Of a stretch of 29,077 nt of DNA, positions 1 through 26,067 are shown in pieces. The stretch's first letter is position 1. The number at the start of each line of letters is the position of its first letter. Source of the stretch: a virus (Duplodnaviria > Caudoviricetes); IMG/VR virus record IMGVR_UViG_3300042864_000506, positions 1 to 29,077 of that record. The stretch is one strand, 5' to 3'. The notes beneath the pieces were generated by a model that made no database searches, had not been told where the DNA came from, and worked only from the letters and a program-made list of their open reading frames with translations. The translations under genes and the position numbers were made by a program.

Positions 1-450
1 AGACGTATATATGATGATAATTTTAAAACAAAAATAATTGATTTATTAATAAACAATTATAAAACTGGCACATTTAAATTATGGTTCAATTATAATGATT
101 TTAATTTAAAAAATTTTAATATTAGTTTAACGTCATATTATAATGGTAGATATCTTAATTTACATAAAGATAAATCTAGCGAACTAACAACAGTGATAGT
201 ATTATCAGATGGGTTTGAAGGTGGAGAATTTGCATTATCTGAAGATAAAAATCCACCAATGCATTTTGAAACATTAGAAGGGATATCAATTTTTAATCTT
301 AAAATAGGAGATTCTATATCATTTAACGGATCATCAACCTATCACGGAGTCTTACCAGTTACAAGTGGTGTACGATACGCACTAAACATTTGGATGACCG
401 AAACAGATTTTGATTACCCAAAACTTAAAGTTAATACTACATTAATATGA
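1..450 (+). CDS. 2OG-Fe(II) oxygenase (prolyl-4-hydroxylase-like fold), 5'-truncated by window edge
   Basis: Frame 1 is open from base 1 (RRIYDDNF...), upstream of the tracked GTG at 193. It contains HxD (LHKD), FEGGEF, distal His (YHGVLPV) and the 2OG-binding Arg (GVRYALNIW). Confidence 0.85.
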   Translation, partial: RRIYDDNFKTKIIDLLINNYKTGTFKLWFNYNDFNLKNFNISLTSYYNGRYLNLHKDKSSELTTVIVLSDGFEGGEFALSEDKNPPMHFETLEGISIFNLKIGDSISFNGSSTYHGVLPVTSGVRYALNIWMTETDFDYPKLKVNTTLI

Positions 451-965
451 GTATATTAATAATTGCATTACCGAGAACGGGGTCATCCGAATTAGGTAGA
501 AGACTATCCACATATAATAAATTTAAATACGAATTTGAACCATTTAACCCAAGTGTTGGGTTACCACCATTAACCGACTTTAAAAAAATTGTTCTTAAAA
601 CAATAATATTTCATTTACCTTATTATATAAAGGAAGAGAATAGAATTAATTGGTTAATTGAATTAACTAAAAATTTTGATGAAGTTGTTTTATTATCAAG
701 AAAAAATTTAACAGATTGTGCGGAGAGTTGGTCTTATTTAATATACAAAGAAAAAAGTTTTAAATCTAACCAACCATATCTTTGGGAAAAAACACCAAAC
801 TACAATGAAGAATATCTCAACATAATAAAGTGGAATGAGGAGTTAACGTTCATATCAAATGAATTAAATATACCAATCACCTATTATGAAGATTTATTCA
901 ATCCAAACGATAATGATAGATTAAGAAAGGGTAATTTAAATGATTACGAAAAAAAAATAATTTAG
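447..965 (+). CDS. Sulfotransferase-like P-loop protein (Stf0-like)
   Basis: N-terminal IALPRTGSSEL (5'-PSB loop-like), EFEPFNP, VVLLSRKNL..AES (3'-PB-like) and ITYYEDLF; ATGA overlap with the upstream gene. Confidence 0.65.
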   Translation: MSILIIALPRTGSSELGRRLSTYNKFKYEFEPFNPSVGLPPLTDFKKIVLKTIIFHLPYYIKEENRINWLIELTKNFDEVVLLSRKNLTDCAESWSYLIYKEKSFKSNQPYLWEKTPNYNEEYLNIIKWNEELTFISNELNIPITYYEDLFNPNDNDRLRKGNLNDYEKKII

Positions 966-968
966 AAA

Positions 969-2219
969 GTGAAAATATATATCCATCACCCATATCAAAA
1001 ATCTATATTTTATAAATTAGCACATAATACTACTAATAGAGAATACTTTATTGAAAATGATGAAGGTAGTGTGTTTTGTAAATATAAAAATATCGACGTT
1101 GAGTTCATTTTCAAAAAAGAAATTAGTTTTGAAGATGATGGATATCATATGTTAGATTATTTTACCGCATTTTTCTACGGGGAAATCGATTCTAAAATTG
1201 GTAAGATAGAACCAGATAGAGATTATATGGAAAGGGAAAGTCAACAAATTTTAAAAGTATTTATAAAATTATTAAAAGACTGCCCAAAAAATCAAAAATG
1301 GTTAATAGGTTATTTTAGAACTGAAAAAATTTTACAAACTAAAGACACAAATATAATTGATGAAAATTGGTTAGAAATTGAATCACTTATGGGAGAATTA
1401 AAAAATCATCACTTTATAACTGATAATATATTTTTAAATCAAAATTTAGAATCGCAGTATCCAAATTTTTATTACGCATTAACAAATACAATATTTCAAT
1501 GGAATGAAGTTGTTGCACTTAGATGGTATTATGAATTTAAACAATTGTATGATAAATTAACGTTTGATTATGATTTAATGTATAGTATTAAAAATCATAA
1601 AATTAATCGTGTGAACATTATAAATGAATTAAGTAAATTAAAAAACAATAGGTTATATTTACAACATACAGATGCGTTAAAAAATCCAGCATATAAAAAA
1701 CACTCACCGATAATAACACATATAAATACTAATTCAATAGTAGGAGATACCGACTTTTCGGATATAAGTTGTGTCCCAAATCATCAAGGATATATGGATG
1801 TGTTTTTTAGGGTTTTACCTAAAGCTAAGATGCAGATATTGTGTGAAAGTTGGTCTTGGAATAACAAAGAATTTACTTCTCAATATCTTTCAGAAAAAAC
1901 GTTTGGGTTATTATTTTCCGGTATACCATTTATTTCTACTCATGAATACCCTCTACAAATGATTGAGAAAATGTTAGATGTTCCACCTCACCCATTTTAT
2001 AATGAATCTAAAAGATGTAAAACTAACGGTAAATTATTTGCTGAATTTGTCAATAAATTTTTACAAGACTTTGATGAAAATTTTAAATTATGTAAAGAAT
2101 GGTCGGATTTGGTACACACTAAACTAATGTATAAAATTGAAAATGAAAATTCATTATTGGATTTAATAATTGGTGGAGAACTAAAAACTGAATTTGTAAT
2201 TAAAAAATCTTTAATATGA
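969..2219 (+). CDS. Hypothetical protein, possible GT-B/GT10-like glycosyltransferase
   Basis: 416 aa ORF with GTG start. The C-terminal ILCES...YLSEKTF...GIPFI resembles the ExxxxxY[IL][TS]EK...P nucleotide-sugar motif of GT10-like proteins. Confidence 0.45.
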   Translation: MKIYIHHPYQKSIFYKLAHNTTNREYFIENDEGSVFCKYKNIDVEFIFKKEISFEDDGYHMLDYFTAFFYGEIDSKIGKIEPDRDYMERESQQILKVFIKLLKDCPKNQKWLIGYFRTEKILQTKDTNIIDENWLEIESLMGELKNHHFITDNIFLNQNLESQYPNFYYALTNTIFQWNEVVALRWYYEFKQLYDKLTFDYDLMYSIKNHKINRVNIINELSKLKNNRLYLQHTDALKNPAYKKHSPIITHINTNSIVGDTDFSDISCVPNHQGYMDVFFRVLPKAKMQILCESWSWNNKEFTSQYLSEKTFGLLFSGIPFISTHEYPLQMIEKMLDVPPHPFYNESKRCKTNGKLFAEFVNKFLQDFDENFKLCKEWSDLVHTKLMYKIENENSLLDLIIGGELKTEFVIKKSLI

Positions 2220-2911
2220 TGCAAGTAGTTTTTACATACATACCCTTTAGATTAAAAGATATAACTGAAATTTATTTAAAATACACCATTGGTAATTTGA
2301 ATAACCAAAATATCACCCCAATTATTTATTCCGATAAGGATTATTTTATTAACACTAATTTAAAATATATTTGGGTTGAATTTGATGTTGAGTCTAAATA
2401 TAAAGTAGGAACATTGTGGTCTTATCCCAAATTAAAAGTATTATCGATGATTGATAAACCATTTATACATTTGGATAATGATTTAATTGTAGAAGATTTT
2501 AATAAGTTGATGAATTTAATAAATCCAAAAATATTAAACATATCACATAAACATATAATTAATGATGTGAGCACCTTTGTTGAAATTTTTAAAAAATATA
2601 CAAACAAACAACTTAACTTTGAATATTTAAATAACACCTCAATTATCGGTACCGAAAATTATAAATTGGTTAATCGTTCATATAGAGAGGTGTTAGACGT
2701 TATAGACATACATTATGATTTCTTTTTAAAGAGACATAATACAGTACCACCCGTTACCTTAAATCAGCAGTACCCAAATTTATATTTTGACAATATAAAT
2801 TATATATTTAATAAAAATCCATCGTACGATGATTTATATATAAATGGAGTATGTCATATGTCCGAAAAACAAATGAAACAAAAATTTATAACAACAAAAA
2901 AATTATTATAA
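2216..2911 (+). CDS. GT-A-like nucleotide-diphospho-sugar transferase-like protein (DUF6734-like)
   Basis: LWSYPKLKVLSMIDKPFIHLDNDLIV with a DxD motif; ATGA overlap with the upstream gene. Confidence 0.55.
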   Translation: MMQVVFTYIPFRLKDITEIYLKYTIGNLNNQNITPIIYSDKDYFINTNLKYIWVEFDVESKYKVGTLWSYPKLKVLSMIDKPFIHLDNDLIVEDFNKLMNLINPKILNISHKHIINDVSTFVEIFKKYTNKQLNFEYLNNTSIIGTENYKLVNRSYREVLDVIDIHYDFFLKRHNTVPPVTLNQQYPNLYFDNINYIFNKNPSYDDLYINGVCHMSEKQMKQKFITTKKLL

Positions 2912-3495
2912 TGGTTATTAAAATATACAATGACACAATATTAACCCCCGTAAAATGCGGCACCAGATACTTGGATAAGATATGGGAAGATAAACGAATT
3001 TATTCGGGACATGAAAAATATTTAAAATTTCCGAAAGTAAAATATATTATTGTTAGAGAACCAATGAGTCATTTAATTTCAGCTCTACATACGGAAACTC
3101 TTGATTGGATAAATCATTATACCGATAAAGATGATTTATATCACCAACTGAACGAGTTTAATAGTAATCAAGGATCAACACATTGGTGCGTTCCCTTTTA
3201 TGAATATTTTTATTATTATAGAAACAAACATGGTAATGACATTGAGGTTGTTAAATTAGAAAATTTAACAGAGTTGTTAAAACAATTGGGACACGATGTT
3301 GAATACACACCGGAAGAATATCATTTTAAAGAATATAAAAAGTGGTGGCCAAAAGATGAACTATTTCAAATGTTAAAAGATATGTACCCAAAAGAAGTAA
3401 ATTTGTTGATTGATAAAGTTAAAAATCAAACCGAATATTACAACAAATTAATAAATAATGAAATAGACAATAGATTGACGGGTAATTTACTATAA
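2911..3495 (+). CDS. Sulfotransferase family 2-like protein
   Basis: PVKCGTRYL (5'-PSB-like KxG[ST]), IIVREPMSHLISAL (3'-PB-like R..S), VVKLENL. Start moved from 2851 to the ATG at 2911, which forms a TAATG overlap with the upstream stop. Confidence 0.55.
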   Translation: MVIKIYNDTILTPVKCGTRYLDKIWEDKRIYSGHEKYLKFPKVKYIIVREPMSHLISALHTETLDWINHYTDKDDLYHQLNEFNSNQGSTHWCVPFYEYFYYYRNKHGNDIEVVKLENLTELLKQLGHDVEYTPEEYHFKEYKKWWPKDELFQMLKDMYPKEVNLLIDKVKNQTEYYNKLINNEIDNRLTGNLL

Positions 3496-4167
3496 ATGAA
3501 TAATATGAAAAACGTACTTTGGACATTTGGAGATTCAATGACATTCGGCCACGGATGTAATGAGTTATGTGTGTCGGAGACTAAAGAAGAGTATCTACCA
3601 TATAAAAAAGAAGGTGATGATGTTTGGGTAAATCATTTAGGTAAATTATTGAATTACGAAGTTAAAAATTTAGGTAAGAACGGAGCATCAAATGATTATA
3701 TATTTGATACAATTATTGAGAATTTTGATTATATAGGTGAGGATGATGTGGTTATAATTAATATGACATTACATGGTAGAATAGAAGTACCGATAGGTAA
3801 TGAAATAATGAACGTACTATCTTCCTATGAAAACGCAATTAAAATTATAGGTGAAAGTAAAGAAGAAGATAGTATTGAGAAAATCGATACGGTCCTTAAT
3901 TTCCAATATCATTTTTCAAATCATCAATTTTATAAAGAAAGACATAGAAAACGTTTTAGATTTATAAAAAATAGATTGAAAGAAGATAAAAAAATTAAAT
4001 TTATCTATCTTTGGTCATTGGAGGATGATGATGACATATATAGATCGTTTCAGACGATTAAAGACGACACTAAGGGTAAAATTAACGATACCCACTTCTC
4101 ATTTAAAGGACATTTAGATTTCGCACATTATCTGTCCTCAACCATGGACGTTAAAAAACTAATTTAA
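3496..4167 (+). CDS. SGNH/GDSL-family hydrolase or acyltransferase-like protein
   Basis: Block I FGDSMTFG, block II NLGKNGASN, block V DTHFSFKGH (DxH). Confidence 0.75.
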   Translation: MNNMKNVLWTFGDSMTFGHGCNELCVSETKEEYLPYKKEGDDVWVNHLGKLLNYEVKNLGKNGASNDYIFDTIIENFDYIGEDDVVIINMTLHGRIEVPIGNEIMNVLSSYENAIKIIGESKEEDSIEKIDTVLNFQYHFSNHQFYKERHRKRFRFIKNRLKEDKKIKFIYLWSLEDDDDIYRSFQTIKDDTKGKINDTHFSFKGHLDFAHYLSSTMDVKKLI

Positions 4168-4177
4168 CCACCAAAAG

Positions 4178-4206
4178 TTGATTTTTTAATGTATTTTCTT
4201 TATATT
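4178..4206 (+). promoter_or_regulatory. Putative promoter TTGATT-N17-TATATT
   Basis: Hexamers at 4178-4183 and 4201-4206; the ATG at 4214 follows after 7 nt. The same architecture recurs at 12059, 25303 and 27106. Confidence 0.55.
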
Positions 4207-4213
4207 ATGTGTA

Positions 4214-6940
4214 ATGAAAATACTAGCACACGCACCATTCATAGGTACAACTGGTTATGCAAACCACGCACGTTCATTCTTTTGTGCACTTAATAAGTAC
4301 CACACCGTAAAAGTTAGAAACCTCACAATTGGTAACAGTTGGAAGGGAATGAATAATCGTCCACATGACGGAGAACCATATTTCACAGAAGAAATTGGGG
4401 ACATGTTAATTTTACAGACATTACATAAGGCAGATGGTAATGGAAGGGTTGACGAACCAATGTACGATTATAAGGGTGACTTTACACCAGATGTACACAT
4501 TGTACTCATGGAAACTAATAACCACTACTTCTACGATGACTATGTTGGTTATAAAATTGCATATAATGTGTGGGAATCAACTCGATACCCCGATGATTTC
4601 TTTAATCAATTATTAAAGTTTGATGAGATGTGGGTCCCAACGCAATGGCAATTTGATTGTTTGGTTGAACAGGGTTACCCAAAAGAAAAAATCTTCATCG
4701 TACCTGAGGGTGTTGACGTTGATACATTCAAACCAATTAAAAAATTCCCTAAAAGAGAAAAGGTACGTTTTGTACATTTTGGTAGATGGGATTATAGAAA
4801 AGGTACCACCGAAATATTACAAGCCTTTGCGGAAGAGTTTAAAGATGTAGACGATGTTGAACTTTTAGCATCTGTCGAAAATCCATATCCATACGATGGG
4901 TTAAAGACAACAGAAGAGAGAGTTAAACATTATGGTATTGATACTAAGAATATTCAATTTTTAAATTTCCCCTCAAGGGAGGAATACGTAAATTATTTAC
5001 AAACCGCACATGTATTTGTTTCATGTGCTAGAAGTGAGGGTTGGAACTTACCTTTAATTGAGGCGATGGCATGTGGAACACCCTCAATTTATTCCGATTG
5101 GGGTGGTCAATTACAATTTGCACAAGGTAAAGGTGTACCAGTTGGTATTAAAGGATTAAGACCTGCTAATATTGAACATAAAGAATGGCCAGGTGAATAT
5201 TGTGAACCAGATTGGGATGACTTGAAGCGTCAGATGAGACAGGCATACGATTACAATACCGCTATGTGGATAAAGGCGGTTAGTGATGCTAAAGATATTC
5301 ACGAGAAATTTAATTGGGATACGGTTGCTAAGGGTGCGTGTGATATATTGGAAAGAAATAAGAAACCATTTGCTTTTGTAACAACAGGTAACTTAGGTTA
5401 CATGCCGGTAATAGAGAAGTTAGTTCAATCATTATTGGAATTCTCTGAACAAAAGATTTTGGTTTATGGTATTGATTGTGAAGTTCCATTCGACTATCCA
5501 AATGTTATTAAGAGAACAATTACCGTCCCTAAGATTTCTGAACACGATAAATGGTATTGGAAACAATGGTCTTGTATTGAAGCATTAAAAGAAAACTTTG
5601 AAAACTTTGTTTGGGTTGATGGTGACGTGGTTGTTAACCATAACATTGACGACATTAGACAATACTTTGGTCAAATCGAGAACTACCCAATTGCAGATAT
5701 TCACGTACAAGAAGAATTCTTCGGTATGTACGATAATGGTAACAAGTCCCAATTATTCAACGAACAACTTGCTAATGAATGGGGTATTGCTAAACATAAT
5801 CCATACATGCACATTTGTCTTTATGTTTACAATAAAAATTGTGGTGAATGGTTTGATGAATTACTTACTCATTATGTTTCATTAATGGAAACTAAACCTG
5901 AAGATTACAAGAGATTATATCTTTGGAATGATGAGGGTATTGATAATGCAATGAGATGGAAACACAGTCACACGAAACATTTACCCCTATCTAATTTTGA
6001 CACTTCGTCTTATGATGGGGATGCTGGATTTATTGATAAAACATTACATCAGTTTTATAAATTTTGGAACGAGGAAGGTCCACAGAATTTCGATAGAATA
6101 TTTGGTTATCAATTCATACCGAAAGATAAATCTAAAATCATTTATTTCCATGGTAACAAGAACGCTGAGATTTCAGATAAGATGATTGAGTTTATCAAAA
6201 TGGAAAGAGACAAATCGTTTTATAAATCACACTGTTTCTATACGGATGTTTACAAAGTTGAAAACTTCTCCAAATATTATGAATATCAGGGTAGTACCAT
6301 GGACGTTGCCGGTAAATTTGGCTGGGCGGTTGCTATCTTCCATGAGATTTTTAACTTATTAGATTACTATAAGAATAGGGAAAGAACGATTAACGAAGGA
6401 GACACTGTTGTTGACTTAGGTGGTAACATCGGAGTGTTCAATAGATGGGCGTATAGTCAAGGGGCTAGTAGAGTAATATCATTTGAACCTGACAAGAGAT
6501 ACTTTAAATTACTTTCCTTAAACGCAGACCCTCGTTCAGTATTATTCAACGCGGCTGCAAGTGATTCTATTGGGGAATTAAATTTATTTGAAAGTACTCA
6601 CTTAGGTGGATCCAATTTATTTGGTACACAAGAAGGAGCTAAAGAATATAAGGTAAGAACATATACATTAAATTACCTTTTTGAAACGGGACTTGTAGAT
6701 AAGATAGATTTCTTGAAAATAGATATTGAGGGAGCTGAACATCACGCATTGAAAGGAATTAGTGATGAAAATTTAATGAAGGTTAAAACAATTTCAATGG
6801 AATATCACCATGGTCATTTTAATTATGATGAAGAATTAAGACAGAGTATGATTGATAGGATGTTAAGATTAGGGTTTAACTCATATATTTTATTTATGGG
6901 TTCAAATAATGCATTACAAATGATATATTTTACAAGATGA
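4214..6940 (+). CDS. Three-domain protein: GT4 glycosyltransferase + GT-A glycosyltransferase + FkbM-family methyltransferase
   Basis: aa ~1-380: GRWDYRKG and SEGWNLPLIEAMACGTP (GT4 E-X7-E). aa ~385-665: FVWVDGDVVV (DxD), WNDEG, YFHGNK. aa ~700-908: VVDLGGNIG, FEP, IDFLKIDIEGAE, MEYH (FkbM). Confidence 0.85.
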   Translation: MKILAHAPFIGTTGYANHARSFFCALNKYHTVKVRNLTIGNSWKGMNNRPHDGEPYFTEEIGDMLILQTLHKADGNGRVDEPMYDYKGDFTPDVHIVLMETNNHYFYDDYVGYKIAYNVWESTRYPDDFFNQLLKFDEMWVPTQWQFDCLVEQGYPKEKIFIVPEGVDVDTFKPIKKFPKREKVRFVHFGRWDYRKGTTEILQAFAEEFKDVDDVELLASVENPYPYDGLKTTEERVKHYGIDTKNIQFLNFPSREEYVNYLQTAHVFVSCARSEGWNLPLIEAMACGTPSIYSDWGGQLQFAQGKGVPVGIKGLRPANIEHKEWPGEYCEPDWDDLKRQMRQAYDYNTAMWIKAVSDAKDIHEKFNWDTVAKGACDILERNKKPFAFVTTGNLGYMPVIEKLVQSLLEFSEQKILVYGIDCEVPFDYPNVIKRTITVPKISEHDKWYWKQWSCIEALKENFENFVWVDGDVVVNHNIDDIRQYFGQIENYPIADIHVQEEFFGMYDNGNKSQLFNEQLANEWGIAKHNPYMHICLYVYNKNCGEWFDELLTHYVSLMETKPEDYKRLYLWNDEGIDNAMRWKHSHTKHLPLSNFDTSSYDGDAGFIDKTLHQFYKFWNEEGPQNFDRIFGYQFIPKDKSKIIYFHGNKNAEISDKMIEFIKMERDKSFYKSHCFYTDVYKVENFSKYYEYQGSTMDVAGKFGWAVAIFHEIFNLLDYYKNRERTINEGDTVVDLGGNIGVFNRWAYSQGASRVISFEPDKRYFKLLSLNADPRSVLFNAAASDSIGELNLFESTHLGGSNLFGTQEGAKEYKVRTYTLNYLFETGLVDKIDFLKIDIEGAEHHALKGISDENLMKVKTISMEYHHGHFNYDEELRQSMIDRMLRLGFNSYILFMGSNNALQMIYFTR

Positions 6941-7596
6941 GTACATTAGACAAATTAGCAAAATCGTTCGGAACCGATAAATCTTCCGATAACCACAATT
7001 ATTGTGTTAAATATGAAAAGTACCTACCATTTAATAGATACGATAACCTAAACATTTTGGAAATAGGTATTTTAGATGGTAAGTCATTATTAACATGGAA
7101 AGACTATTATTATCGAGCTAATATATTAGGTATTGATATTAATCCCGATTGTAAGAAGTATGAAGAATCTCGAATATCAGTTGAGATAGGTTCACAAGCG
7201 GATGGTAATTTCTTATCAAGAACTTGGCAACAATATGGTCCATTTGACATGATATTAGATGATGGTTCACATATTAATGACCATATGATTTATTCGTTTG
7301 AACATTTATTTGGTTCGGTTAAATCGGGAGGTGTCTATGTCATTGAAGATATCGGTTGTTCGTATTGGGAGGACTACGGCGGTGGTTATCTTTATCCTGG
7401 TAGTGCTATGGAATACTTTAAAAGATTATCAGATGATATTAATTTTAGAGGGTTAATGAATTTTGACCACTCAAATGTACACGCAAGAAGAGAAGATGTT
7501 TTGACTGATTTATCAAAACAAGTACAACCGGGTTGTAGAACAGATATTGAATCGATAAATTTCCTTAACGGAATCATTATAATAACTAAACGATAA
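6937..7596 (+). CDS. SAM-dependent sugar O-methyltransferase, MycE/TylE-like catalytic domain
   Basis: GTDK...HNY, ILEIGI, GIDI, GSQAD, GPFDMILDDGSHIN and GGVYVIED closely match the motifs of the MycE/TylE/OleY class. Confidence 0.8.
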   Translation: MSTLDKLAKSFGTDKSSDNHNYCVKYEKYLPFNRYDNLNILEIGILDGKSLLTWKDYYYRANILGIDINPDCKKYEESRISVEIGSQADGNFLSRTWQQYGPFDMILDDGSHINDHMIYSFEHLFGSVKSGGVYVIEDIGCSYWEDYGGGYLYPGSAMEYFKRLSDDINFRGLMNFDHSNVHARREDVLTDLSKQVQPGCRTDIESINFLNGIIIITKR

Positions 7597-9713
7597 TGGC
7601 ATATAGTTTTGACGAAGATATCTTCGTAATTGATTGTTGGATTGACACTAAAGAAAAAGAACAAACACTTCTTAATTTAATTAATAGAGTAAAAGTTTAT
7701 AACGTACCAATACTATTATGTGGACATAGTCCCGTGAGTATCGAAATACAAAAACAAGTTGATTATTTTTTATTCGATAAAAATAATAACATTCTATTAG
7801 AAAAAGACTTTAACGAGTATGGGGTGGTAAGTGATAGATGGTCTATCATGAATGACTATAAAGTTTTTAACAAAGTAAATTTTCATCACGACTACGCAAT
7901 TTGGGAAACGATGAGAAACGCATTCCAATTTGTAAAAAGATTAGGTAAAAAATACATACACTTCCTCGAGTTCGATAATTTACCGGACGAGATTCAATAT
8001 CGTCAGGCTTTCATGGAATATGTAAGAGGTAATGATGTGGTTGTTCAAGAGTACCTTGAAGGATCAACAAGAGAACAAGACCCATATTGTGCAACATATA
8101 TATTCTCAATTAAAACCGATATCGCTAATCAGATGATTGAGAAGATTAATACGAAAGAGGAATATTTTAAAAATAGACCCGGTAAGTGGCAATTAGAAAA
8201 GGTTTTCTATCAAACCCTAAGGGAAATCACCGGTAGTATATTCGTTAGTAAGTATATCCCAAATGACGAGGAGTTAAACATTTATGCAGCTTGGAATCGT
8301 AACGGTATATTAAGAAACGGGGCAAGATTTCAAACATACTTGGCGGTAGACCATCATAAAAAATTACACATACACTTTATATCAGGATTTTCTGAAAAAC
8401 CCGCTGATAAAGATTATTTGGTTGAGGTCAATTATAAAAACCGTAATTTCTTCCATACTGTTACCAAAGGATCCTATCAATTAGAATCATTAGGTGAATA
8501 TGTTGAGGGAGAAACGGTTAAAGTATTTTACCAAGGGGTTGAGGTATTTTCTGAAACTTTAACCAAAAATGTTGATGAATTTAGAAGACTGAACAAATTA
8601 GAATGGAAGGTTAAAGAATCTAATAGAAGATTTAACATTAATTTCATAGACGGTCCGTACGTTGAGATATTAGATAATGTTGATTTGTCATATAGAGTTG
8701 ATTTTATTAATAGAAGAAATAATAAAATAGAATACACAACCACATTAAGAAGTAACCATTGGTCAAAATCATCCATAAAATATTTCGTAGATTGGGAAAT
8801 CAGGATTACGGGAATCGATAATGATTATGTTGGGACTTATTTGATGGATCTTAAGGGACAAAGAGTTTTAATTAGTTATGAAACAAAGTCCTTAGGTGAT
8901 AACATTGCATTTATACCATATGTAGAGGAATTTAGAAAACAGAAGGGTTGCCATGTAGTTTGTTCAACATTTCACAACGACTTATTTAAAAAAGATTATC
9001 CTGAAATTGAATTTATTGAACCAGGAACCAACGCCGAAAATATATATGCTCTTTATAGATTGGGTGTTTTTTATGAAAATAAACAAATTGATGACTCAAG
9101 ACACCCTATAAACCCAATTAAGGAACCTTTGATGAAAGTGGCTACGGATATTTTGGGTATACAGTATCGAGAAACCAAAGTAAAACTTCCTAAATTATCT
9201 AAAACAAAAAAGAATAGGGTATGTATTGCCATTCACTCAACTTCACAAGCAAAATATTGGAACAATCCGAATGGATGGCAAGATGTTGTGGATTACATTA
9301 AAGAAAAGGGGTACGAAGTTAGACTCCTATCGAGAGAAGAGGATGGGTATATGGGTAATTCAAATCCTAAAGGTGTTACATTACAACCAAGAGGTACTAC
9401 TAAAGAAGTATTAAAGACAATACAAGAATCAAAACTATTCATCGGAATTAGTAGTGGTTTAAGTTGGTTAGCTTGGGGAACAGATACTCCCGTTGTAATA
9501 ATATCAGGTTTCACCGATAAACATTTGGAACCTATGGATGGAATTACAAGAATTATAAATAAAGAGGTATGTAACGGATGTTGGCATACTCATGAATTCG
9601 ATCCGGGGGATTGGAATTGGTGTCCCGTACATAAAAATACCGATAGACAATTTGAATGTTCTAAAGAAATATTATCTAATGATGTAATTAAACAGATAGA
9701 AAAATTTTTGTAA
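7596..9713 (+). CDS. Two-domain glycosyltransferase: N-terminal GT-A-like domain + C-terminal Aah/TibC-type (autotransporter O-heptosyltransferase-like) domain
   Basis: C-terminal half has SLGDNIAFIPYVEEFR, CIAIHSTSQAKYWNNPNGW, FIGISSGLSWLAW, VVIISGFT and the four-Cys motif CNGCW...WCPVHKNTDRQFECSK, all characteristic of Aah/TibC. N-terminal half has IHFLEFD (DxD-like). Confidence 0.82.
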   Translation: MAYSFDEDIFVIDCWIDTKEKEQTLLNLINRVKVYNVPILLCGHSPVSIEIQKQVDYFLFDKNNNILLEKDFNEYGVVSDRWSIMNDYKVFNKVNFHHDYAIWETMRNAFQFVKRLGKKYIHFLEFDNLPDEIQYRQAFMEYVRGNDVVVQEYLEGSTREQDPYCATYIFSIKTDIANQMIEKINTKEEYFKNRPGKWQLEKVFYQTLREITGSIFVSKYIPNDEELNIYAAWNRNGILRNGARFQTYLAVDHHKKLHIHFISGFSEKPADKDYLVEVNYKNRNFFHTVTKGSYQLESLGEYVEGETVKVFYQGVEVFSETLTKNVDEFRRLNKLEWKVKESNRRFNINFIDGPYVEILDNVDLSYRVDFINRRNNKIEYTTTLRSNHWSKSSIKYFVDWEIRITGIDNDYVGTYLMDLKGQRVLISYETKSLGDNIAFIPYVEEFRKQKGCHVVCSTFHNDLFKKDYPEIEFIEPGTNAENIYALYRLGVFYENKQIDDSRHPINPIKEPLMKVATDILGIQYRETKVKLPKLSKTKKNRVCIAIHSTSQAKYWNNPNGWQDVVDYIKEKGYEVRLLSREEDGYMGNSNPKGVTLQPRGTTKEVLKTIQESKLFIGISSGLSWLAWGTDTPVVIISGFTDKHLEPMDGITRIINKEVCNGCWHTHEFDPGDWNWCPVHKNTDRQFECSKEILSNDVIKQIEKFL

Positions 9714-9778: not shown

Positions 9779-11797
9779 ATGAAAATATTTGAACCATTAA
9801 TAACAGGGTCCCTTTCAGTATCAGGTTCGGCACACGTAAGAGGTGATTTAACCGTACTTGGGACTATAAACGCTACGATTAGCGGTACAACATCAAACGC
9901 GGTGAGTGCGTCAACCGCACTGTACGCAAATGATGCAGATAAATTAGACGGTAAAGATTCTTCCGAATTTGCGATAACAGGAAGTAATATATTCAAAGCG
10001 AACCAAACAATTACAGGTTCACTTTATGTTACTGACGATATCATATTAAATGGACAGTCTTACACTGGACAAACTTCAGGAACATCAGGTACAAGTGGAA
10101 CTGCCGGAACAAGTGGAACTTCAGGTTCTTCGGGTTCGAGCGGTAGTGCCGGTACCAGCGGTTCTTCAGGAACGTCTGGTAGTTCTGGTTCATCTGGAAC
10201 ATCAGGATCCGCGGGAACATCAGGTTCTAGTGGTTCTTCAGGATCTTCAGGATCAAGTGGAACTGCCGGTACGTCAGGTTCTAGCGGTTCTTCAGGAAGT
10301 TCAGGTACATCAGGTTCTAGTGGTTCATCAGGTTCAAACGGGTCTTCAGGAACATCTGGTACCTCGGGTTCAAACGGGTCTTCAGGAACATCTGGTACCT
10401 CAGGTTCATCAGGTTCAAGCGGAACATCTGGTTCTAGCGGTAGTTCAGGTTCTTCAGGAACGGCCGGTACTTCAGGTACCTCGGGTAGTTCAGGTTCTTC
10501 AGGAAGTTCAGGTAGTTCTGGGTCTAGTGGAACGGCCGGTACGTCAGGTTCTAGCGGTTCTTCAGGAAGTTCAGGAACTGTTACTTTAAGTGGCACAACA
10601 GATAATGGTTTATTAACGTTGAACGGTAGTTCACCTAACGTTAGTGTTGAACCTAACTTAACTTTTGATGGTACAACATTAACAGTTACGGGTGACATTT
10701 TAGTTACTAATAATCTATTAGTTCAAGGTACAAATACAAATTTACAAGTTACCAACTTATATGTTGAGGATAAATTAATCACATTAGCAAGTGGGTCATT
10801 ATCTGCAGCTGCAGCTAATGGTGCGGGTATTGAGGTTGTTGGTCCAGCAACGGGAGCAACATTCACATATGCAAATGCTGACGATAGTTGGAACTCGAAT
10901 AAAAAATTAAATGTTCCATCACTTTCAATTAACGGAACTTTATATTCCGCAGCAACCTCAGGCTCATCAGGTTCCTCTGGTTCAAGTGGGTCATCAGGTT
11001 CTTCTGGAAGTTCTGGTTCAAGCGGGTCATCAGGTACATCAGGAACATCAGGTTCTAGTGGATCATCAGGTTCTAGTGGATCATCAGGTTCGTCAGGTTC
11101 AAGTGGTTCGTCTGGAACAAGTGGCTCTTCAGGTTCTAATGGATCTTCGGGTACATCAGGTTCTAGTGGATCATCAGGTTCTTCAGGAACAAGTGGTTCA
11201 TCAGGAAGTTCTGGAAGTTCAGGAACATCAGGTTCTAGTGGTTCTTCAGGTAGTTCAGGAACATCAGGTTCTAGCGGTTCTTCAGGTAGTTCAGGTTCAA
11301 GTGGATCATCAGGTACAACAACAATTACAAACGCATCTGCTGACCGTATAATGACAAGTGAAGGTGGGGTTACTCTAAATGCGGAAGCGGGTTTAACATT
11401 TAATGGAACAACACTATTTGTAAACGGAGCATTAGGTGTAGGTACATCAACACCAACCACTACGGGTTTAATCAGAGCAACAAATGATGTGATTGCATTC
11501 TTTGGTTCTGACGAAAGATTGAAAGAAAACATATTTACAATTACAGGTTCTTTAGATATATTAAAACAAATAAACGGTTATTATTTCGATTGGAAAGAAA
11601 TGCCGGGTATACATGAGAACGAAGGACGTGATATTGGGGTAATTGCACAAGAAATAAATGCGGTACTACCTGAAATTGTAACTACAAGAGATAATGGATA
11701 TATGGCCGTTAAATATGAAAAATTAGTGGCACTATTAATTCAGACAAACAAAGAGTTATTAGAGAGAGTTGAAGCTTTAGAGGCAAAAAATAAATAA
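9779..11797 (+). CDS. Tail fibre/spike-like virion protein with two Ser/Gly triplet tracts and a C-terminal intramolecular chaperone (peptidase S74) domain
   Basis: C-terminal FGSDERLKENI...YFDW...IGVIAQE...PEIV...VKYEKLVALLI followed by a coiled coil is the S74/CIMCD signature. ADKLDGKDS and the ITGSL beta motifs are typical of phage fibres. Confidence 0.88.
   Translation: MKIFEPLITGSLSVSGSAHVRGDLTVLGTINATISGTTSNAVSASTALYANDADKLDGKDSSEFAITGSNIFKANQTITGSLYVTDDIILNGQSYTGQTSGTSGTSGTAGTSGTSGSSGSSGSAGTSGSSGTSGSSGSSGTSGSAGTSGSSGSSGSSGSSGTAGTSGSSGSSGSSGTSGSSGSSGSNGSSGTSGTSGSNGSSGTSGTSGSSGSSGTSGSSGSSGSSGTAGTSGTSGSSGSSGSSGSSGSSGTAGTSGSSGSSGSSGTVTLSGTTDNGLLTLNGSSPNVSVEPNLTFDGTTLTVTGDILVTNNLLVQGTNTNLQVTNLYVEDKLITLASGSLSAAAANGAGIEVVGPATGATFTYANADDSWNSNKKLNVPSLSINGTLYSAATSGSSGSSGSSGSSGSSGSSGSSGSSGTSGTSGSSGSSGSSGSSGSSGSSGSSGTSGSSGSNGSSGTSGSSGSSGSSGTSGSSGSSGSSGTSGSSGSSGSSGTSGSSGSSGSSGSSGSSGTTTITNASADRIMTSEGGVTLNAEAGLTFNGTTLFVNGALGVGTSTPTTTGLIRATNDVIAFFGSDERLKENIFTITGSLDILKQINGYYFDWKEMPGIHENEGRDIGVIAQEINAVLPEIVTTRDNGYMAVKYEKLVALLIQTNKELLERVEALEAKNK
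10073..10576 (+). repeat. Tract 1: 56 x (S/T)-(S/A/N)-G triplets (9-nt period)
   Basis: 504 nt = 168 aa with Gly at every third residue and varied synonymous codons. Contains a 36-nt tandem duplication (10331-10402) and a 41-nt exact repeat (10265-10305 / 10535-10575). Confidence 0.95.
10955..11314 (+). repeat. Tract 2: 40 x (S/T)-(S/N)-G triplets
   Basis: 360 nt = 120 aa with Gly at every third residue and no interruption. Confidence 0.95.
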
Positions 11798-15276: not shown

Positions 15277-16293
15277 TTAAATCAAATTTAATTTTACAAA
15301 TATATCTTTATTAACACTAACCCAACTTTGTAATTTTTCCAACCCCTCTTCCACACCAATTTTAGGTACCCAACCAATTGTGTTCTTTAGTTTAGTAATA
15401 TCACTCACATATATTTTTTGGTCACCTGGTCTCCAATCACTGTATTGATAGTTCAGTACATTTTGTTTACCCAACGTATTCAATAACTCTAACAACGATA
15501 ATGTGTTATCTTCACCACCACCAACATTGAATATTTGACCTTTACATTTATCTATGTTATTAATTATTGTTTCATAAAGGTTAATCAGGTCGTCAATGTG
15601 TAGAACGTCTCTCACTTGTTTACCGTCACCATAGATAAAAAACTTTTTACCGAATGTTGAGGCGATTGTAAACCATGCAACCCAACCTTGGTCTTCAATA
15701 CCAAATTGATTTTGACCATAGATACACGACTGTCTTAATACCACAGTTTTTAATTCATATATTCTACTGTAATCTCTAACATACTGATCTGCGGAACCTT
15801 TTGAACAACCATAAGGTGAATGAAAATCTAATGGAGTTTCTTCATTTACACCACCATCAAACACATATGAATATCTCTTTTCTTCCTCAATTAAATCACT
15901 TTGGTAGTTACCATATACCTTATTTGTTGATGCGAATAACAAAGTTGTATTAGGTGAATGAAGTCTTATAGATTCCAATATATTAAACGTTCCTAAAGCA
16001 TTTATTTCAAAATCCTCTCTTGGGTTTGTTACTGAAAATGTAACAGCAACTTGACCTGCCAAATGAAGTACAACGTCAGGTTGTATTTTTTTAAACACGT
16101 CCTCTATATCAAAGAAGTTACGTATGTCTTTAACATGTAACGTGATGTTTTTATTATTTGAAATCGTTTCATAGTTTTCCATATTACCTTTACGAGAAAC
16201 GTTGTCGACGATATGGATTTCATTATCTGTTGAAAAATACTTTGCTGCGTTTATACCAATAAAACCTAACCCACCTGTAATTAAAATCTTCAT
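15277..16293 (-). CDS. rfbE: CDP-paratose 2-epimerase (CDP-tyvelose synthesis, RfbE/Tyv)-like SDR
   Basis: GGLGFIG, HLAGQVAVT, STNKVYG, FHSPYGCSKG, RQSCIYG..QFGIEDQGWVAWF, GKQVRDVL, WRPGDQ. Confidence 0.82.
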   Translation of the reverse strand: MKILITGGLGFIGINAAKYFSTDNEIHIVDNVSRKGNMENYETISNNKNITLHVKDIRNFFDIEDVFKKIQPDVVLHLAGQVAVTFSVTNPREDFEINALGTFNILESIRLHSPNTTLLFASTNKVYGNYQSDLIEEEKRYSYVFDGGVNEETPLDFHSPYGCSKGSADQYVRDYSRIYELKTVVLRQSCIYGQNQFGIEDQGWVAWFTIASTFGKKFFIYGDGKQVRDVLHIDDLINLYETIINNIDKCKGQIFNVGGGEDNTLSLLELLNTLGKQNVLNYQYSDWRPGDQKIYVSDITKLKNTIGWVPKIGVEEGLEKLQSWVSVNKDIFVKLNLI

Positions 16294-18627: not shown

Positions 18628-20037
18628 TTACAGTTCAATTTTTTTAGTTACTTCATGACCTTGTGTTCCGTGTGAGTCTGCTTGAACATGTTCCAAATAA
18701 CCTTGGTAGAAATAAACTGGAGTATTTGTTAATAAACAAAAGAACGATACTGCTCTTTCTTGATTATGACCACAATTGATGTCGTCTTTCATGTGACTTA
18801 TTAATGGAGAAACCCACCTCATGTATTTGTCAAAGAAAGAATAATCAAAACAAACATTATTAGTTGTTGCCCAAACTGGTTCTCTACCCGCAGCGTTTTC
18901 CTTATTAACAACATCCACTATAATCTTAAACATATCTAACTTATACACTGATTGAATACCTTTGAATACGGAACTAACCCACCCTGGATTCATTACATAA
19001 TGATAATTTCTCATCTCCAACGGGAAGTACCCAACAATCTTAGGTTTATGTTTTAATAGAATGTTTTTTAAATGTAATGAGTAATCATCTTTTAAGTTAA
19101 CATCATACTCCAATAAGTTAATGTACTTAGTTTTACACAAACCTTGTCTCCATATTGCATACCACGCAGTGAATGCGGTGAACAATGGATACTGTTCAAT
19201 GTTATGTTTTAAATCTCTTACAATAATAACTTCAGGATAGTTTTCTAGTTCTGTGAACTCACCTTTACCAACATACATAAAGACCACATTACCTAAAGAT
19301 TTAAATTTATTGGATTCAATATTTGATTTGATAATTTTTTGGTCATGACACATAACGTATGTTGTCAAATCCCCAACCTCCTCATACTTTAACGGTAGAC
19401 TATCTTTATATTTCCCAACAAACAATTGTCTATTGATGTCCCACTGAGCCGGAGTTTCCCCTAACGATAAATGTGTAACTCTAACATCGTATGTAACACC
19501 AACCTTTACACCTTTCAGATAGTTAGAAAATGAAAAGCTTAAATCATAGAAATGAAAACCAGGTATCTCAGCATCAAAAGTTTCTTTAATTCTACCTTTA
19601 TGTAATGAAATGAATAACCCATCCACCACAACTACGTTGGATATCTTACCTTCGTTTGGTGAATATTTTGATTCCCATTTTTTACCGTCTTTTTGGTGGT
19701 TAACAATACCTCTTAAGTTTAACGGAACATCCCACCATTTACCTGAAGATGGCATAACAACAGAACCCGCCAATCCTAAAACACCGTACTCGGTTTTTTC
19801 AAAATTCTTTAATAAATTTTTACCCCAATTCTTAGTTTCAAATAGAATATCATCATGACAAAGAACTACAATATCATTAACTGATTCGTTAATAATTTCA
19901 TTATATGTTTCTGACAATGATTTTTCACCATTGTTTATTTTTTGAATTACTTGTACGTTATTAATACCACAAGTTTTAGTAACGTAATCAATAAATTCTT
20001 GATTATCTTTTCTTGTTGAAAATCCTACTGTTATCAT
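18628..20037 (-). CDS. Two-domain GT-A glycosyltransferase-like protein
   Basis: N-domain: VLCHDDI, VVVVDGLFI, FHFYDL, VTHLSLG. C-domain: INLLEYD, HNQERAVSFF. Confidence 0.7.
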   Translation of the reverse strand: MITVGFSTRKDNQEFIDYVTKTCGINNVQVIQKINNGEKSLSETYNEIINESVNDIVVLCHDDILFETKNWGKNLLKNFEKTEYGVLGLAGSVVMPSSGKWWDVPLNLRGIVNHQKDGKKWESKYSPNEGKISNVVVVDGLFISLHKGRIKETFDAEIPGFHFYDLSFSFSNYLKGVKVGVTYDVRVTHLSLGETPAQWDINRQLFVGKYKDSLPLKYEEVGDLTTYVMCHDQKIIKSNIESNKFKSLGNVVFMYVGKGEFTELENYPEVIIVRDLKHNIEQYPLFTAFTAWYAIWRQGLCKTKYINLLEYDVNLKDDYSLHLKNILLKHKPKIVGYFPLEMRNYHYVMNPGWVSSVFKGIQSVYKLDMFKIIVDVVNKENAAGREPVWATTNNVCFDYSFFDKYMRWVSPLISHMKDDINCGHNQERAVSFFCLLTNTPVYFYQGYLEHVQADSHGTQGHEVTKKIEL

Positions 20038-21041
20038 ATTGTTGTTTTATTTTTCCAGAATGAATAAATTCCTTTTTCTAATTCGTATTCGGACCACACA
20101 AATCTATCTCTTTTAGGTTGTTTTTGTACCCATGACCACATTTGTGTTAAACCATCTTTTAAAGAAGTTTCGTGTTTAAAATCTAAAAGGTCAATTGACT
20201 TTTGAAATGTTGGTATTGAATTTTTTACCTCATGTCTTGCCTCTTTGTAGACAACTTCACCTCTTGTTGGTAGAACACTTCTTAAAACTTCACACGCATC
20301 GTTTATAGAATATTCCTCAACACCACCTAAATTAATAATTTGTTTGGATGTGTTTTCATTTTGTGATGCCTTCCACAACGGTTCGAGCGAATCGTCAATA
20401 AAACTAAACGCTCTTGTTTGATTACCATCACCAAATATTGTCATTGGTTCGTTGTTCATGTACTGGAACATCCAAATACCTAATACGTTTCTGTACTTGT
20501 CCCAGATGTTCTGTTTGACCCCATAAACGTTATGTGGTCTAATGATACACCAATCTAATCCATGTTGTTCACCAGCAATTTGTATATCCATTTCACATCC
20601 ATATTTGGCAACACCATATGGGTCAATTGGTTTTGGTGTTTGATCCTCATCAAATACTCCACCATTACCGTGACCATAAACCGCTAATGTCGAAGTGAAC
20701 ACTAATCTTTTAACGTCATGTTTAATACATTCGTTTATTATACGAGAAGTTGCCACTAAATTATTTTGATAGTTAAAACTTCTAATGAATGGTGACAACC
20801 CCTCAGCCGCATATGCTGCGAAATGATAAACATAATCGAATTTATGTTCACTAAAACATTTATCTAAATTACAATTAACTAAATTCATTTTCCAAAATTC
20901 GACTTTTGGATTTATGTTTTCAAAATACCCCCCACTCAAATCATCGATACCGACAATCTCAACCTCAGGATAATTTTTTATAATATAATCTGCCAATCTA
21001 GACCCCAATAGTCCGGCAACGCCTGTTATTAAAATTTTCAT
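20034..21041 (-). CDS. NAD-dependent epimerase/dehydratase (GalE/UDP-sugar 4-epimerase-like extended SDR)
   Basis: TGVAGLLG, DDLSGG, YHFAAYAAEGLS, FTSTLAVYG, PYGVAKY (YxxxK), IFGDGNQTRAF. Confidence 0.85.
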   Translation of the reverse strand: MKILITGVAGLLGSRLADYIIKNYPEVEIVGIDDLSGGYFENINPKVEFWKMNLVNCNLDKCFSEHKFDYVYHFAAYAAEGLSPFIRSFNYQNNLVATSRIINECIKHDVKRLVFTSTLAVYGHGNGGVFDEDQTPKPIDPYGVAKYGCEMDIQIAGEQHGLDWCIIRPHNVYGVKQNIWDKYRNVLGIWMFQYMNNEPMTIFGDGNQTRAFSFIDDSLEPLWKASQNENTSKQIINLGGVEEYSINDACEVLRSVLPTRGEVVYKEARHEVKNSIPTFQKSIDLLDFKHETSLKDGLTQMWSWVQKQPKRDRFVWSEYELEKGIYSFWKNKTTI

Positions 21042-25374: not shown

Positions 25375-26067
25375 ATGAAAATAGGTGTTGGGGGGTGTTC
25401 ACACTCATCTTACGGTTATGGGGACCCATGGCATAAATTTATGGGCCACAAGTTGGGTGTCGAAATCATCAAATCATCATCCTCAGGAGGAGGTAATGAG
25501 ATGAATATTGAAAAAATTAAGTACATTTTTGACAAGAATCCCGACTTAGATGTTTTTGTTTTACAACTTACGGAACCATCTCGATTTGTTTTTGGAATGG
25601 AAGATTTTAACAATAGTCATGAAAAAACCGATTGTGTGTTGGACTGCCCAACGTTTTTCAACGGAGTTAAATACTATACCGCTGTCGGTAATAAAAATGA
25701 TGAAAGATTAAAAAAAAGGACAAATATTGACGTTAAATTTGATCAATTATTTAAGAATCACATTTACGTTTCCAATTATAACACCAAATATAAATTTTTA
25801 CATACACTAATGTCAATTCAACATTTAGCAAATTACTACAATAAAAAAATAATCTTTTTTAGTTGGTTTGTCGATGTTAAAGAATTGGCACAATCGGTTG
25901 GTTATCAACACATAATAGAAAAAATGACAATACTTGACGGATATGTTATGGATTTTGTTAAAAGAAATAATATCCCCGCATTACCAAGAGATAGTCATTA
26001 TGGGACAACATCACACGAAATAATATTTAACGATTACATATATCCACAACTAAAAAATTTAATTTAA
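25375..26067 (+). CDS. Divergent SGNH-like protein
   Basis: GVGGCSHS (block I GxS), SGGGN (block II), DSHY...H (block V); same layout as 3496-4167. Confidence 0.55.
   Translation: MKIGVGGCSHSSYGYGDPWHKFMGHKLGVEIIKSSSSGGGNEMNIEKIKYIFDKNPDLDVFVLQLTEPSRFVFGMEDFNNSHEKTDCVLDCPTFFNGVKYYTAVGNKNDERLKKRTNIDVKFDQLFKNHIYVSNYNTKYKFLHTLMSIQHLANYYNKKIIFFSWFVDVKELAQSVGYQHIIEKMTILDGYVMDFVKRNNIPALPRDSHYGTTSHEIIFNDYIYPQLKNLI

Follow-up and report, generated by a model that had tools for sequence, protein, structure and literature searches.

A short C-terminal tag on the enzymes of a T4-like phage gene module, and a hub protein that may read it

The 29,077-nucleotide stretch analysed here (hereafter the window; positions 1 to 29,077 of IMG/VR record IMGVR_UViG_3300042864_000506, from a virus of the Caudoviricetes) begins with six consecutive genes whose products all end in two residues drawn from Leu and Ile. 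The original prediction, made from the letters of the window, had read this ending as a portable C-terminal docking or addressing peptide. Comparison with related loci reveals a single motif, with consensus K-[STKN]-[LI]-[LI]-COOH, which recurs at the extreme end of proteins with unrelated folds and, judged from sequence, has the properties of a portable C-terminal address tag. The tagged genes cluster around an untagged protein (hereafter the hub) encoded just upstream of the window. We favour, with a confidence that falls somewhat short of even, the reading that the tail is a docking tag read by the hub together with a small partner protein, gathering the enzymes of the module on a shared substrate.

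In large aquatic phages, oxygenases, halogenases, sulfotransferases and transferases are encoded in long arrays of variable make-up. In such arrays, a four-residue tail would mark pathway membership, even for genes located elsewhere in the genome, and the present analysis names a testable candidate for its reader.

A C-terminal tag maintained as amino acids

The six genes at the start of the window, and the block that follows them and serves as internal control, are the following (lengths in amino acids, aa):

1-450, plus strand: 2-oxoglutarate (2OG)-Fe(II) oxygenase (PF13640, 1.6e-8), ending KVNTTLI; its 5' part lies beyond the window (188 aa in relatives)
447-965, plus strand: 172-aa protein with a probable sulfotransferase fold, ending YEKKII; family tagged in 31/31
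969-2219, plus strand: 416-aa protein, family unassigned, ending IKKSLI; family tagged in 22/26
2216-2911, plus strand: DUF6734-like 231-aa protein (PF20508, 5e-4, below cut-off), ending TTKKLL; family tagged in 21/21
2911-3495, plus strand: 194-aa protein, ending LTGNLL; family tagged in 6/10
3496-4167, plus strand: SGNH/GDSL-like protein (PF13472, 3e-3, below cut-off) that closes the run, ending DVKKLI; family tagged in 23/28
4214-9713, plus strand: untagged glycosyltransferase/methyltransferase block with ATGA and TAATG overlaps, ends YFTR, ITKR and EKFL; families tagged in 0/5, 0/7 and 2/6

All six endings are as originally described, and their codon pairs are, in order, TTA-ATA, ATA-ATT, TTA-ATA, TTA-TTA, TTA-CTA and CTA-ATT. 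The Lys said usually to precede the tag occupies -3 or -4 in four endings and is absent from NTTLI and GNLL. The enzyme labels held in part: the oxygenase passes the Pfam cut-off, the DUF6734 and GDSL assignments stay below it, and genes 2, 3 and 5 of the run (447-965, 969-2219 and 2911-3495) have no Pfam, PHROG or NCBIfam match. The oxygenase gene is found at full length in two related contigs (L077 and L019), and its family is tagged in 34/37. The 447-965 product is linked by profile comparison (1e-21; pairwise 6e-9) to a family with a weak PF13469 match, a sequence search of the PDB returning nothing meaningful, and the 194-aa protein is presumably sulfotransferase-like, to judge by an N-terminal motif. 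The six folds, described as unrelated, mostly are, with the qualification that genes 2 and 5 may share a sulfotransferase fold, which would leave five. For the 416-aa protein, an Atlas row gives PF00852 at 0.89, making glycosyltransferase GT10 a lead only; no match was found in the cultured-phage records searched, and a single-sequence fold with a predicted local distance difference test score (pLDDT) of 37 was discarded.

To place these endings in context, 2,233 distinct open reading frames (ORFs) were clustered from 150 sequences (149 loci and the window) and counted as tagged, strictly, if they ended in [LI][LI]. Genome-wide counts were taken from the relatives G003, G004, G007 and G008, in which the ORF caller can miss genes across stretch borders. 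The loci are related and all tag counts are consequently non-independent; the tag nonetheless recurs in many unrelated families. Most families are bimodal, being tagged in 80-100% or approximately 0% of their members. In 20 module families, picked after their tag rates were seen (a choice of which the position-based counts given below are free), 439/491 members are tagged at 90% non-redundancy, compared to 20/422 control ORFs, the other genes of two complete relatives, which disposes of the possibility, raised with the original prediction, that such endings are equally frequent in all gene classes. The profile of the tag is Ile (72%) or Leu (22%) at -1, Leu (71%) or Ile (21%) at -2, Ser (28%), Thr (28%), Lys (18%) or Asn (10%) at -3, and Lys (58%) at -4. 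The [LI][LI] dipeptide has an internal rate of 2.9%. In the window, 8 of the 36 called ORFs carry the ending, namely the six-gene run and the genes at 15277-16293 and 25375-26067. Six consecutive tagged genes would arise by chance with a probability of ~1e-8 at the control rate, or 4e-5 at the rate of 6/33 seen in controls with an ATGA overlap, in agreement with the initial claim that such a run is very unlikely.

That last rate bears on an alternative in which the tail is a by-product of AT-rich DNA and of the signals from which an overlapping downstream gene starts (TTAATATG-like junctions). An ATGA overlap forces an NNA last codon, lifting the control rate to that value, and an effect of gene overlap on C-termini has been reported, as far as the available text of PMC7246954 goes. 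Against this, ATGA-overlapping genes of the module families are tagged in 129/141 cases compared to the 6/33 controls, and genes with a gap above 20 nt, or with no called neighbour, downstream in 96/106 compared to 5/178. Within the run itself the junctions vary, comprising two ATGA overlaps, one TAATG overlap, and gaps of 0 and 3 nt, with 46 nt after 3496-4167. Furthermore, the Leu codons at -2 of module genes without a close downstream gene match internal usage, and among 177 orthologue pairs with 60-90% identity the -2 codons are identical in 74, synonymous in 49, exchanged between Leu and Ile in 39 and otherwise changed in 15, so that synonymous and Leu/Ile changes dominate the non-identical codons (at -1, the same pairs give 108, 21, 42 and 6, respectively). 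The overlap-matched counts and the orthologue codon comparison refute this account, to which we assign a negligible probability, and the signal lies at the protein level, as first proposed.

The position of the tag is also maintained: where tail length differs between orthologues, both members remain tagged in 13/17 pairs, compared to 0/23 in untagged families. Taken together, the orthologue comparisons show a tag that is selected as amino acids, at the extreme C-terminus, behind a variable Lys-rich linker. Such an ending goes against the general background, because hydrophobic C-termini are disfavoured in bacteria according to the available part of PMC7246954. A promoter and terminator scan of positions 1-4400 was uninformative, with 43 promoter-like sites compared to 35.8 +/- 6.4 in shuffled sequences and zero terminators.

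The module and its untagged hub

Contig L077, which is 96.0% identical to window positions 1-6862 and reaches further upstream, carries 16 consecutive genes of which 14 are tagged; the untagged pair in the middle encodes the hub (493-495 aa) and a 47-aa ORF. Judging from this contig, the six window genes are the downstream end of a module truncated by the window edge. The genes of L019 equivalent to the upstream part of L077 include four 2OG oxygenases, a tryptophan-halogenase-family gene, a gene for a Cys-rich protein of 95 aa and a DUF6071-like gene. The complete relative G003 (287 kb) encodes Gp23, a T4-type portal, terminase, gp19 and gp32, a gene content by which the window belongs to a large T4-like bacteriophage lineage.

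Tagging follows the hub. In G003, 28/360 ORFs are tagged: a stretch of 14 consecutive genes at the hub accounts for 13 of them and the remaining 346 ORFs for 15; in G004 the genome-wide count is 14/215. Around 50 non-redundant hubs, genes at offsets -5 to +4 are tagged in 344/409 cases compared to 36/343 at eight or more genes away, the hubs themselves being tagged in 0/50. Near 50 divergent hubs, 93/185 genes at +2 to +5 are strictly tagged, and many others end in near-misses such as SFI, TVI or KLF. In all 100 rows listed, three loci occurring in both lists, a small ORF of 29-55 codons follows the hub. At distances above 10 kb from the hub, G003 and G004 encode 18 proteins with the same folds, of which 6 are tagged and 12 are not, so that the tag goes with the module rather more than with the class of enzyme; the tagged genes that lie far from a hub imply that it works in trans. 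The tag was thus found to be portable and class-specific, in keeping with the original prediction. In five cultured phages that lack the hub and carry halogenase/oxygenase arrays, 0/27 chosen homologous enzymes are tagged.

These counts also bear on the possibility that the tail is a shared degron, keeping the enzymes short-lived or scarce through a host protease that reads C-termini. The available part of PMC7246954 describes hydrophobic C-termini as rarer in bacteria and as accelerating decay, which in Mycoplasma pneumoniae was fastest, of the ends tested, with C-terminal Leu. A degron leaves unexplained the untagged enzymes of the same classes elsewhere in the genomes and in cultured phages, as well as the near-exclusive use of Leu and Ile with Lys at -4 (58%) and Ser or Thr at -3 (56%), and we regard it as decidedly improbable.

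Several observations concern the surroundings of the module. It is often flanked (L077:1234-2269 and relatives) by an adenosine 5'-phosphosulfate (APS) kinase, a DUF2061 gene and a carbamoyltransferase, tagged in 1/17, 0/17 and 0/12 cases, respectively; supply enzymes would thus go without the tag, and sulfotransferase-like genes carry it. A small Cys-rich protein is duplicated in L017, L023 and L114, one copy of 72-77 aa being untagged and the other, of 95 aa, having the linker and tag; tagged copies accompany hubs with a Cys-rich peptide (38/48 strict) and other hubs in 0/5. G003 also has a satellite group at ~153-157 kb (L056), separated from the hub by 23-26 kb, in which a tagged radical S-adenosylmethionine gene stands with a tagged homologue of the fifth window gene and an untagged small Cys-rich protein.

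The hub has no Pfam or NCBIfam match. Its structure was modelled with AlphaFold2 from 62 sequences (pLDDT 82.5), and the predicted fold of the 493-aa protein is composed of a YgiC/YjfC-like ATP-grasp domain, a Hint domain without the first nucleophile and a Cys/Trp-rich peptide. The solved folds closest to the N-terminal domain in Foldseek are YjfC, YgiC and glutathionylspermidine synthetase (Gss) (7uk6, E 8.7e-6; 7uk8, 6e-5; 2ioa, 6.3e-5), at 11-12% identity. Residues D9, E21, N23, R112, D116, K173 and R228, which we take to be catalytic from familiar ATP-grasp motifs, are kept in 94-96 of 96 hubs. On this model the hub has the fold and the conserved acidic/Asn/Arg/Lys set of Gss/YgiC/YjfC-type ATP-grasp ligases, and ligase activity is predicted.

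Hub residues 290-466 match 2lwy, 6y75, 1at0 and 4o1r (Z 16.2-16.4, rmsd 2.0-2.5 A over 136-143 residues). As in bacterial intein-like (BIL) and Hedgehog Hint domains, the fold ends in an invariant His-Asn; unlike them, position 1 is His290 rather than Cys or Ser, and Asn is followed by any of several residues (S, T, G, A, P, N). These two features set the domain apart from inteins and predict only C-terminal cleavage, splicing being unexpected, and the fold with its His-Asn end assigns this first Hint, on the model, to the BIL-type C-terminally cleaving domains (for the mechanism, see the available part of PMC4031507). In the clade of the window, the predicted cleavage would free a Cys/Trp/Tyr-rich peptide of 25-35 residues, and in other clades short spacers between further Hint domains. 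The cargo after the Hint thus varies (Cys/Trp peptide, further Hints, spacers of 2-12 residues) and the ligase motifs are near invariant while the tag persists, so that the constant parts are the ligase, the first Hint and the partner.

In divergent hubs (L039/L075, L180, L181, L206, L214, L220, L222 and others), two or three Hints are separated by short spacers, many being Ala-Pro and others Gly/Tyr/Trp/Phe-rich peptides of 7-12 residues; the later Hints start with Cys, and the spacers could therefore be excised at both ends. By eye, the hubs of L017, L023, L041, L043 and L150 have an S74-like chaperone (S-D..K-E-N motif) after the Cys-rich peptide, and hubs lacking it mostly end in Lys and one hydrophobic residue. 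Scans of viral sequences confirmed 257 and 348 hub-encoding stretches, and no match was found among 50,697 cultured-phage records. A single hub locus occurs in GTDB genomes; it lies beside tagged genes on a binned metagenomic contig of 3.7 kb, which is probably phage DNA.

Candidate readers of the tag

The tail K-[STKN]-[LI]-[LI]-COOH labels, at the level of protein, the enzymes of a single phage module. In the mechanism that we favour, this label would be read by the untagged hub, in which a Hint domain is joined to a predicted ATP-grasp ligase, together with its tiny partner. The two would recruit an interchangeable set of hydroxylases, halogenase and sulfotransferase-, SGNH- and methyltransferase-like enzymes, and the Hint domain is predicted to cleave only after His-Asn, freeing the short peptide. 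We infer that the hub binds the tag, that this binding is non-covalent and that the enzymes act either on the freed peptide or on a protein or glycan of the phage surface. The halogenase is found in 18/33 loci with the Cys/Trp peptide and in 0/35 others, a distribution confounded by descent that hints at the freed peptide as substrate, which would then resemble the ribosomal core peptide of a RiPP cluster with its co-encoded modifying enzymes; L035, with a truncated hub and outside this count, pairs a halogenase with a peptide-less end and is a counter-example. Just downstream of the module, window positions 9779-11797 encode a tail-fibre-like protein with long Ser-Gly-Thr repeats and an S74 chaperone, which is a candidate substrate for the nearby transferases.

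Docking on a scaffold, which the original prediction had left general, thereby gains a concrete candidate. Complex prediction of hub residues 1-466, partner and ATP with the last 30 residues of the tagged 95-aa protein scored 0.57, compared to 0.00 for the best of three controls (0.00 with the hub replaced). We count this as weak support: the mark used is reached by 116/157 solved and 2/215 mismatched pairs, with 18/157 of the former and both mismatches at 0.60 or under. At least 50% of the contacts were common between runs, and the partner was modelled at a pLDDT of 35-37.

Several points weigh against recognition by the hub. The 30-residue piece includes the end of the Cys-rich domain and no contacts were returned, the predicted interaction thus not being pinned to the last four residues. 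Strict tagging drops to ~50% near divergent hubs; the cargo in many hubs is only Ala-Pro or a few residues, too small to serve a dozen enzymes as substrate; the loci behind the counts are related to one another; and the co-location of tagged genes and hub could reflect co-regulation only. Genomes without the hub count in its favour. Among 12 long contigs chosen by capsid protein, two of them complete, there was no full hub match and one weak partial match; the two complete hub-less relatives have 10/275 and 3/218 tagged ORFs with a longest run of 1, a weak test since almost every tagged family is missing there too, the one clear homologue being untagged.

The same hub admits a covalent reading, in which the tag is a ligase substrate: the ATP-grasp domain would activate the carboxylate of the terminal Leu-Ile and join the enzymes to an amine, anchoring them on a common carrier. 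The acceptor could be a lysine of the partner or the new N-terminus that Hint cleavage leaves, or else a polyamine or lipid. The nearest folds of the N-terminal domain and its near-invariant candidate catalytic residues fit this reading, as do the need for the tag to be terminal and the complex score, which is equally compatible with it. E. coli YgiC and YjfC, glutathionylspermidine synthetase and RimK act on the C-terminal carboxylate of peptides or proteins; the first three are alike in fold to the N-terminal domain of the hub, which is unlike them in its fusion to a Hint domain and peptide and in its low identity. Precedents are provided by YgiC, reported as a peptide-spermidine ligase (PMC11762307, available in part), and by RimK, which extends a protein C-terminus (PMC11957791, likewise in part). 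On the other hand, each hub frees one peptide, which would not suffice for a dozen enzymes if the amine were anything but a small molecule, the conserved Lys/His end of the partner is absent in the tagged loci L011, L023, L032 and L037, and the acceptor is hypothetical. We consider it unlikely that this is a phage C-terminal conjugation system in which a self-cut hub exposes an amine and the ATP-grasp domain joins the K-x-L-I carboxylate to the peptide or another common amine. If it were, new enzymes would enter the pathway by gaining a four-residue tail, by a logic akin to that of sortases or ubiquitin, with an ATP-grasp ligase and Hint domains as its parts.

Alternatively, the reader might be a host protein, an assembly compartment or a protein of the virion, baseplate or tail fibre, the hub being just another member of the module. 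Tagged proteins located far from the hub, including the window gene at 25375, agree with a reader of this kind, and the enzyme mix fits modification of a surface protein or glycan. The TPR- or PDZ-like phage reader envisaged originally was not borne out: no PDZ, TPR or S41 protease domain was detected (Pfam at 1e-4) among the 269 G003 proteins of at least 100 aa, out of 360 ORFs. Many of these 269 have no Pfam family, which leaves room for a reader of another kind. Against a reader outside the module stand the complex score of 0.00 once the hub is replaced and the relative G007, which has homologues of 123 G003 proteins (mean identity 53%; capsid protein 72% identical) and lacks both the hub and the tag run. 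To us this option seems improbable, about as much so as conjugation.

Whichever protein reads it, the tag works like known short C-terminal address tags and is a member of none of those compared. PTS1, recognised by Pex5, and class I PDZ ligands combine a free carboxylate, an aliphatic last residue, a basic residue or Ser/Thr upstream and a flexible linker, all of which the phage tag shares; it differs from them in that no TPR or PDZ domain was detected among the G003 proteins scanned. Class I PDZ domains want Ser or Thr at the third-last position, present in 56% of the phage tags, and do not need an aliphatic second-last residue. Like the tripeptide [LIM]-[DES]-[FW]-COOH (TCR) of eukaryotic cytosolic iron-sulfur assembly (CIA), read at the Cia1-Cia2 interface, the tag is a very short C-terminal motif that would bring unrelated proteins to one hub, with a two-protein reader there and perhaps hub and partner here (PMC13255074, available in part). 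In that source, the setting is Fe-S delivery with other residues, clients that are not modifying enzymes and no ligase or Hint domain; with Leu or Ile at both last positions, the phage tag is not a TCR motif. Cyanophage Syn9 gp41-gp53 is likewise a phage array of 2OG oxygenases and tryptophan halogenase-like genes, in which 0/12 genes are tagged and for which the available part of PMC2938197 describes no tag.

No description of the tag or the hub was found in the literature searched, which mostly left out subscription journals and excluded supplements. If the hub reads the tag, this plug-in addressing system is unreported for bacteria or phages in the searchable literature, and could become a tool for enzyme co-localisation or C-terminal protein ligation.

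Distant tag-like genes and other features

Two further window genes had been assigned the tag:

25375-26067, plus strand: stand-alone gene, SGNH-like by its first label, no library match, ending LKNLI
15277-16293: RfbE-like gene, ending KLNLI

The first keeps it: in three relatives at 79-86% identity the tail is longer and [LI][LI] remains at its end (ITTKII in two and IPNNII in one). The second is doubtful and was dropped as a module member, since its ending lacks a linker and, of 20 related loci, four close ones (72-99%) end in LNLI or LDLI and 16, largely one near-identical set, do not. An epimerase at window positions 20034-21041 ends in KNKTTI, which is tag-like but not [LI][LI] and is identical in three close relatives.

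Elsewhere, a 1089-aa outer-membrane barrel with a carboxypeptidase-regulatory domain (PF25183, PF13620) is encoded in G003 (L050:11569-14835), from which we presume a Bacteroidota host. In the window, a 70-aa ORF at 21746-21958 matches part of the major capsid protein Gp23 (PF07068, 7.5e-6).

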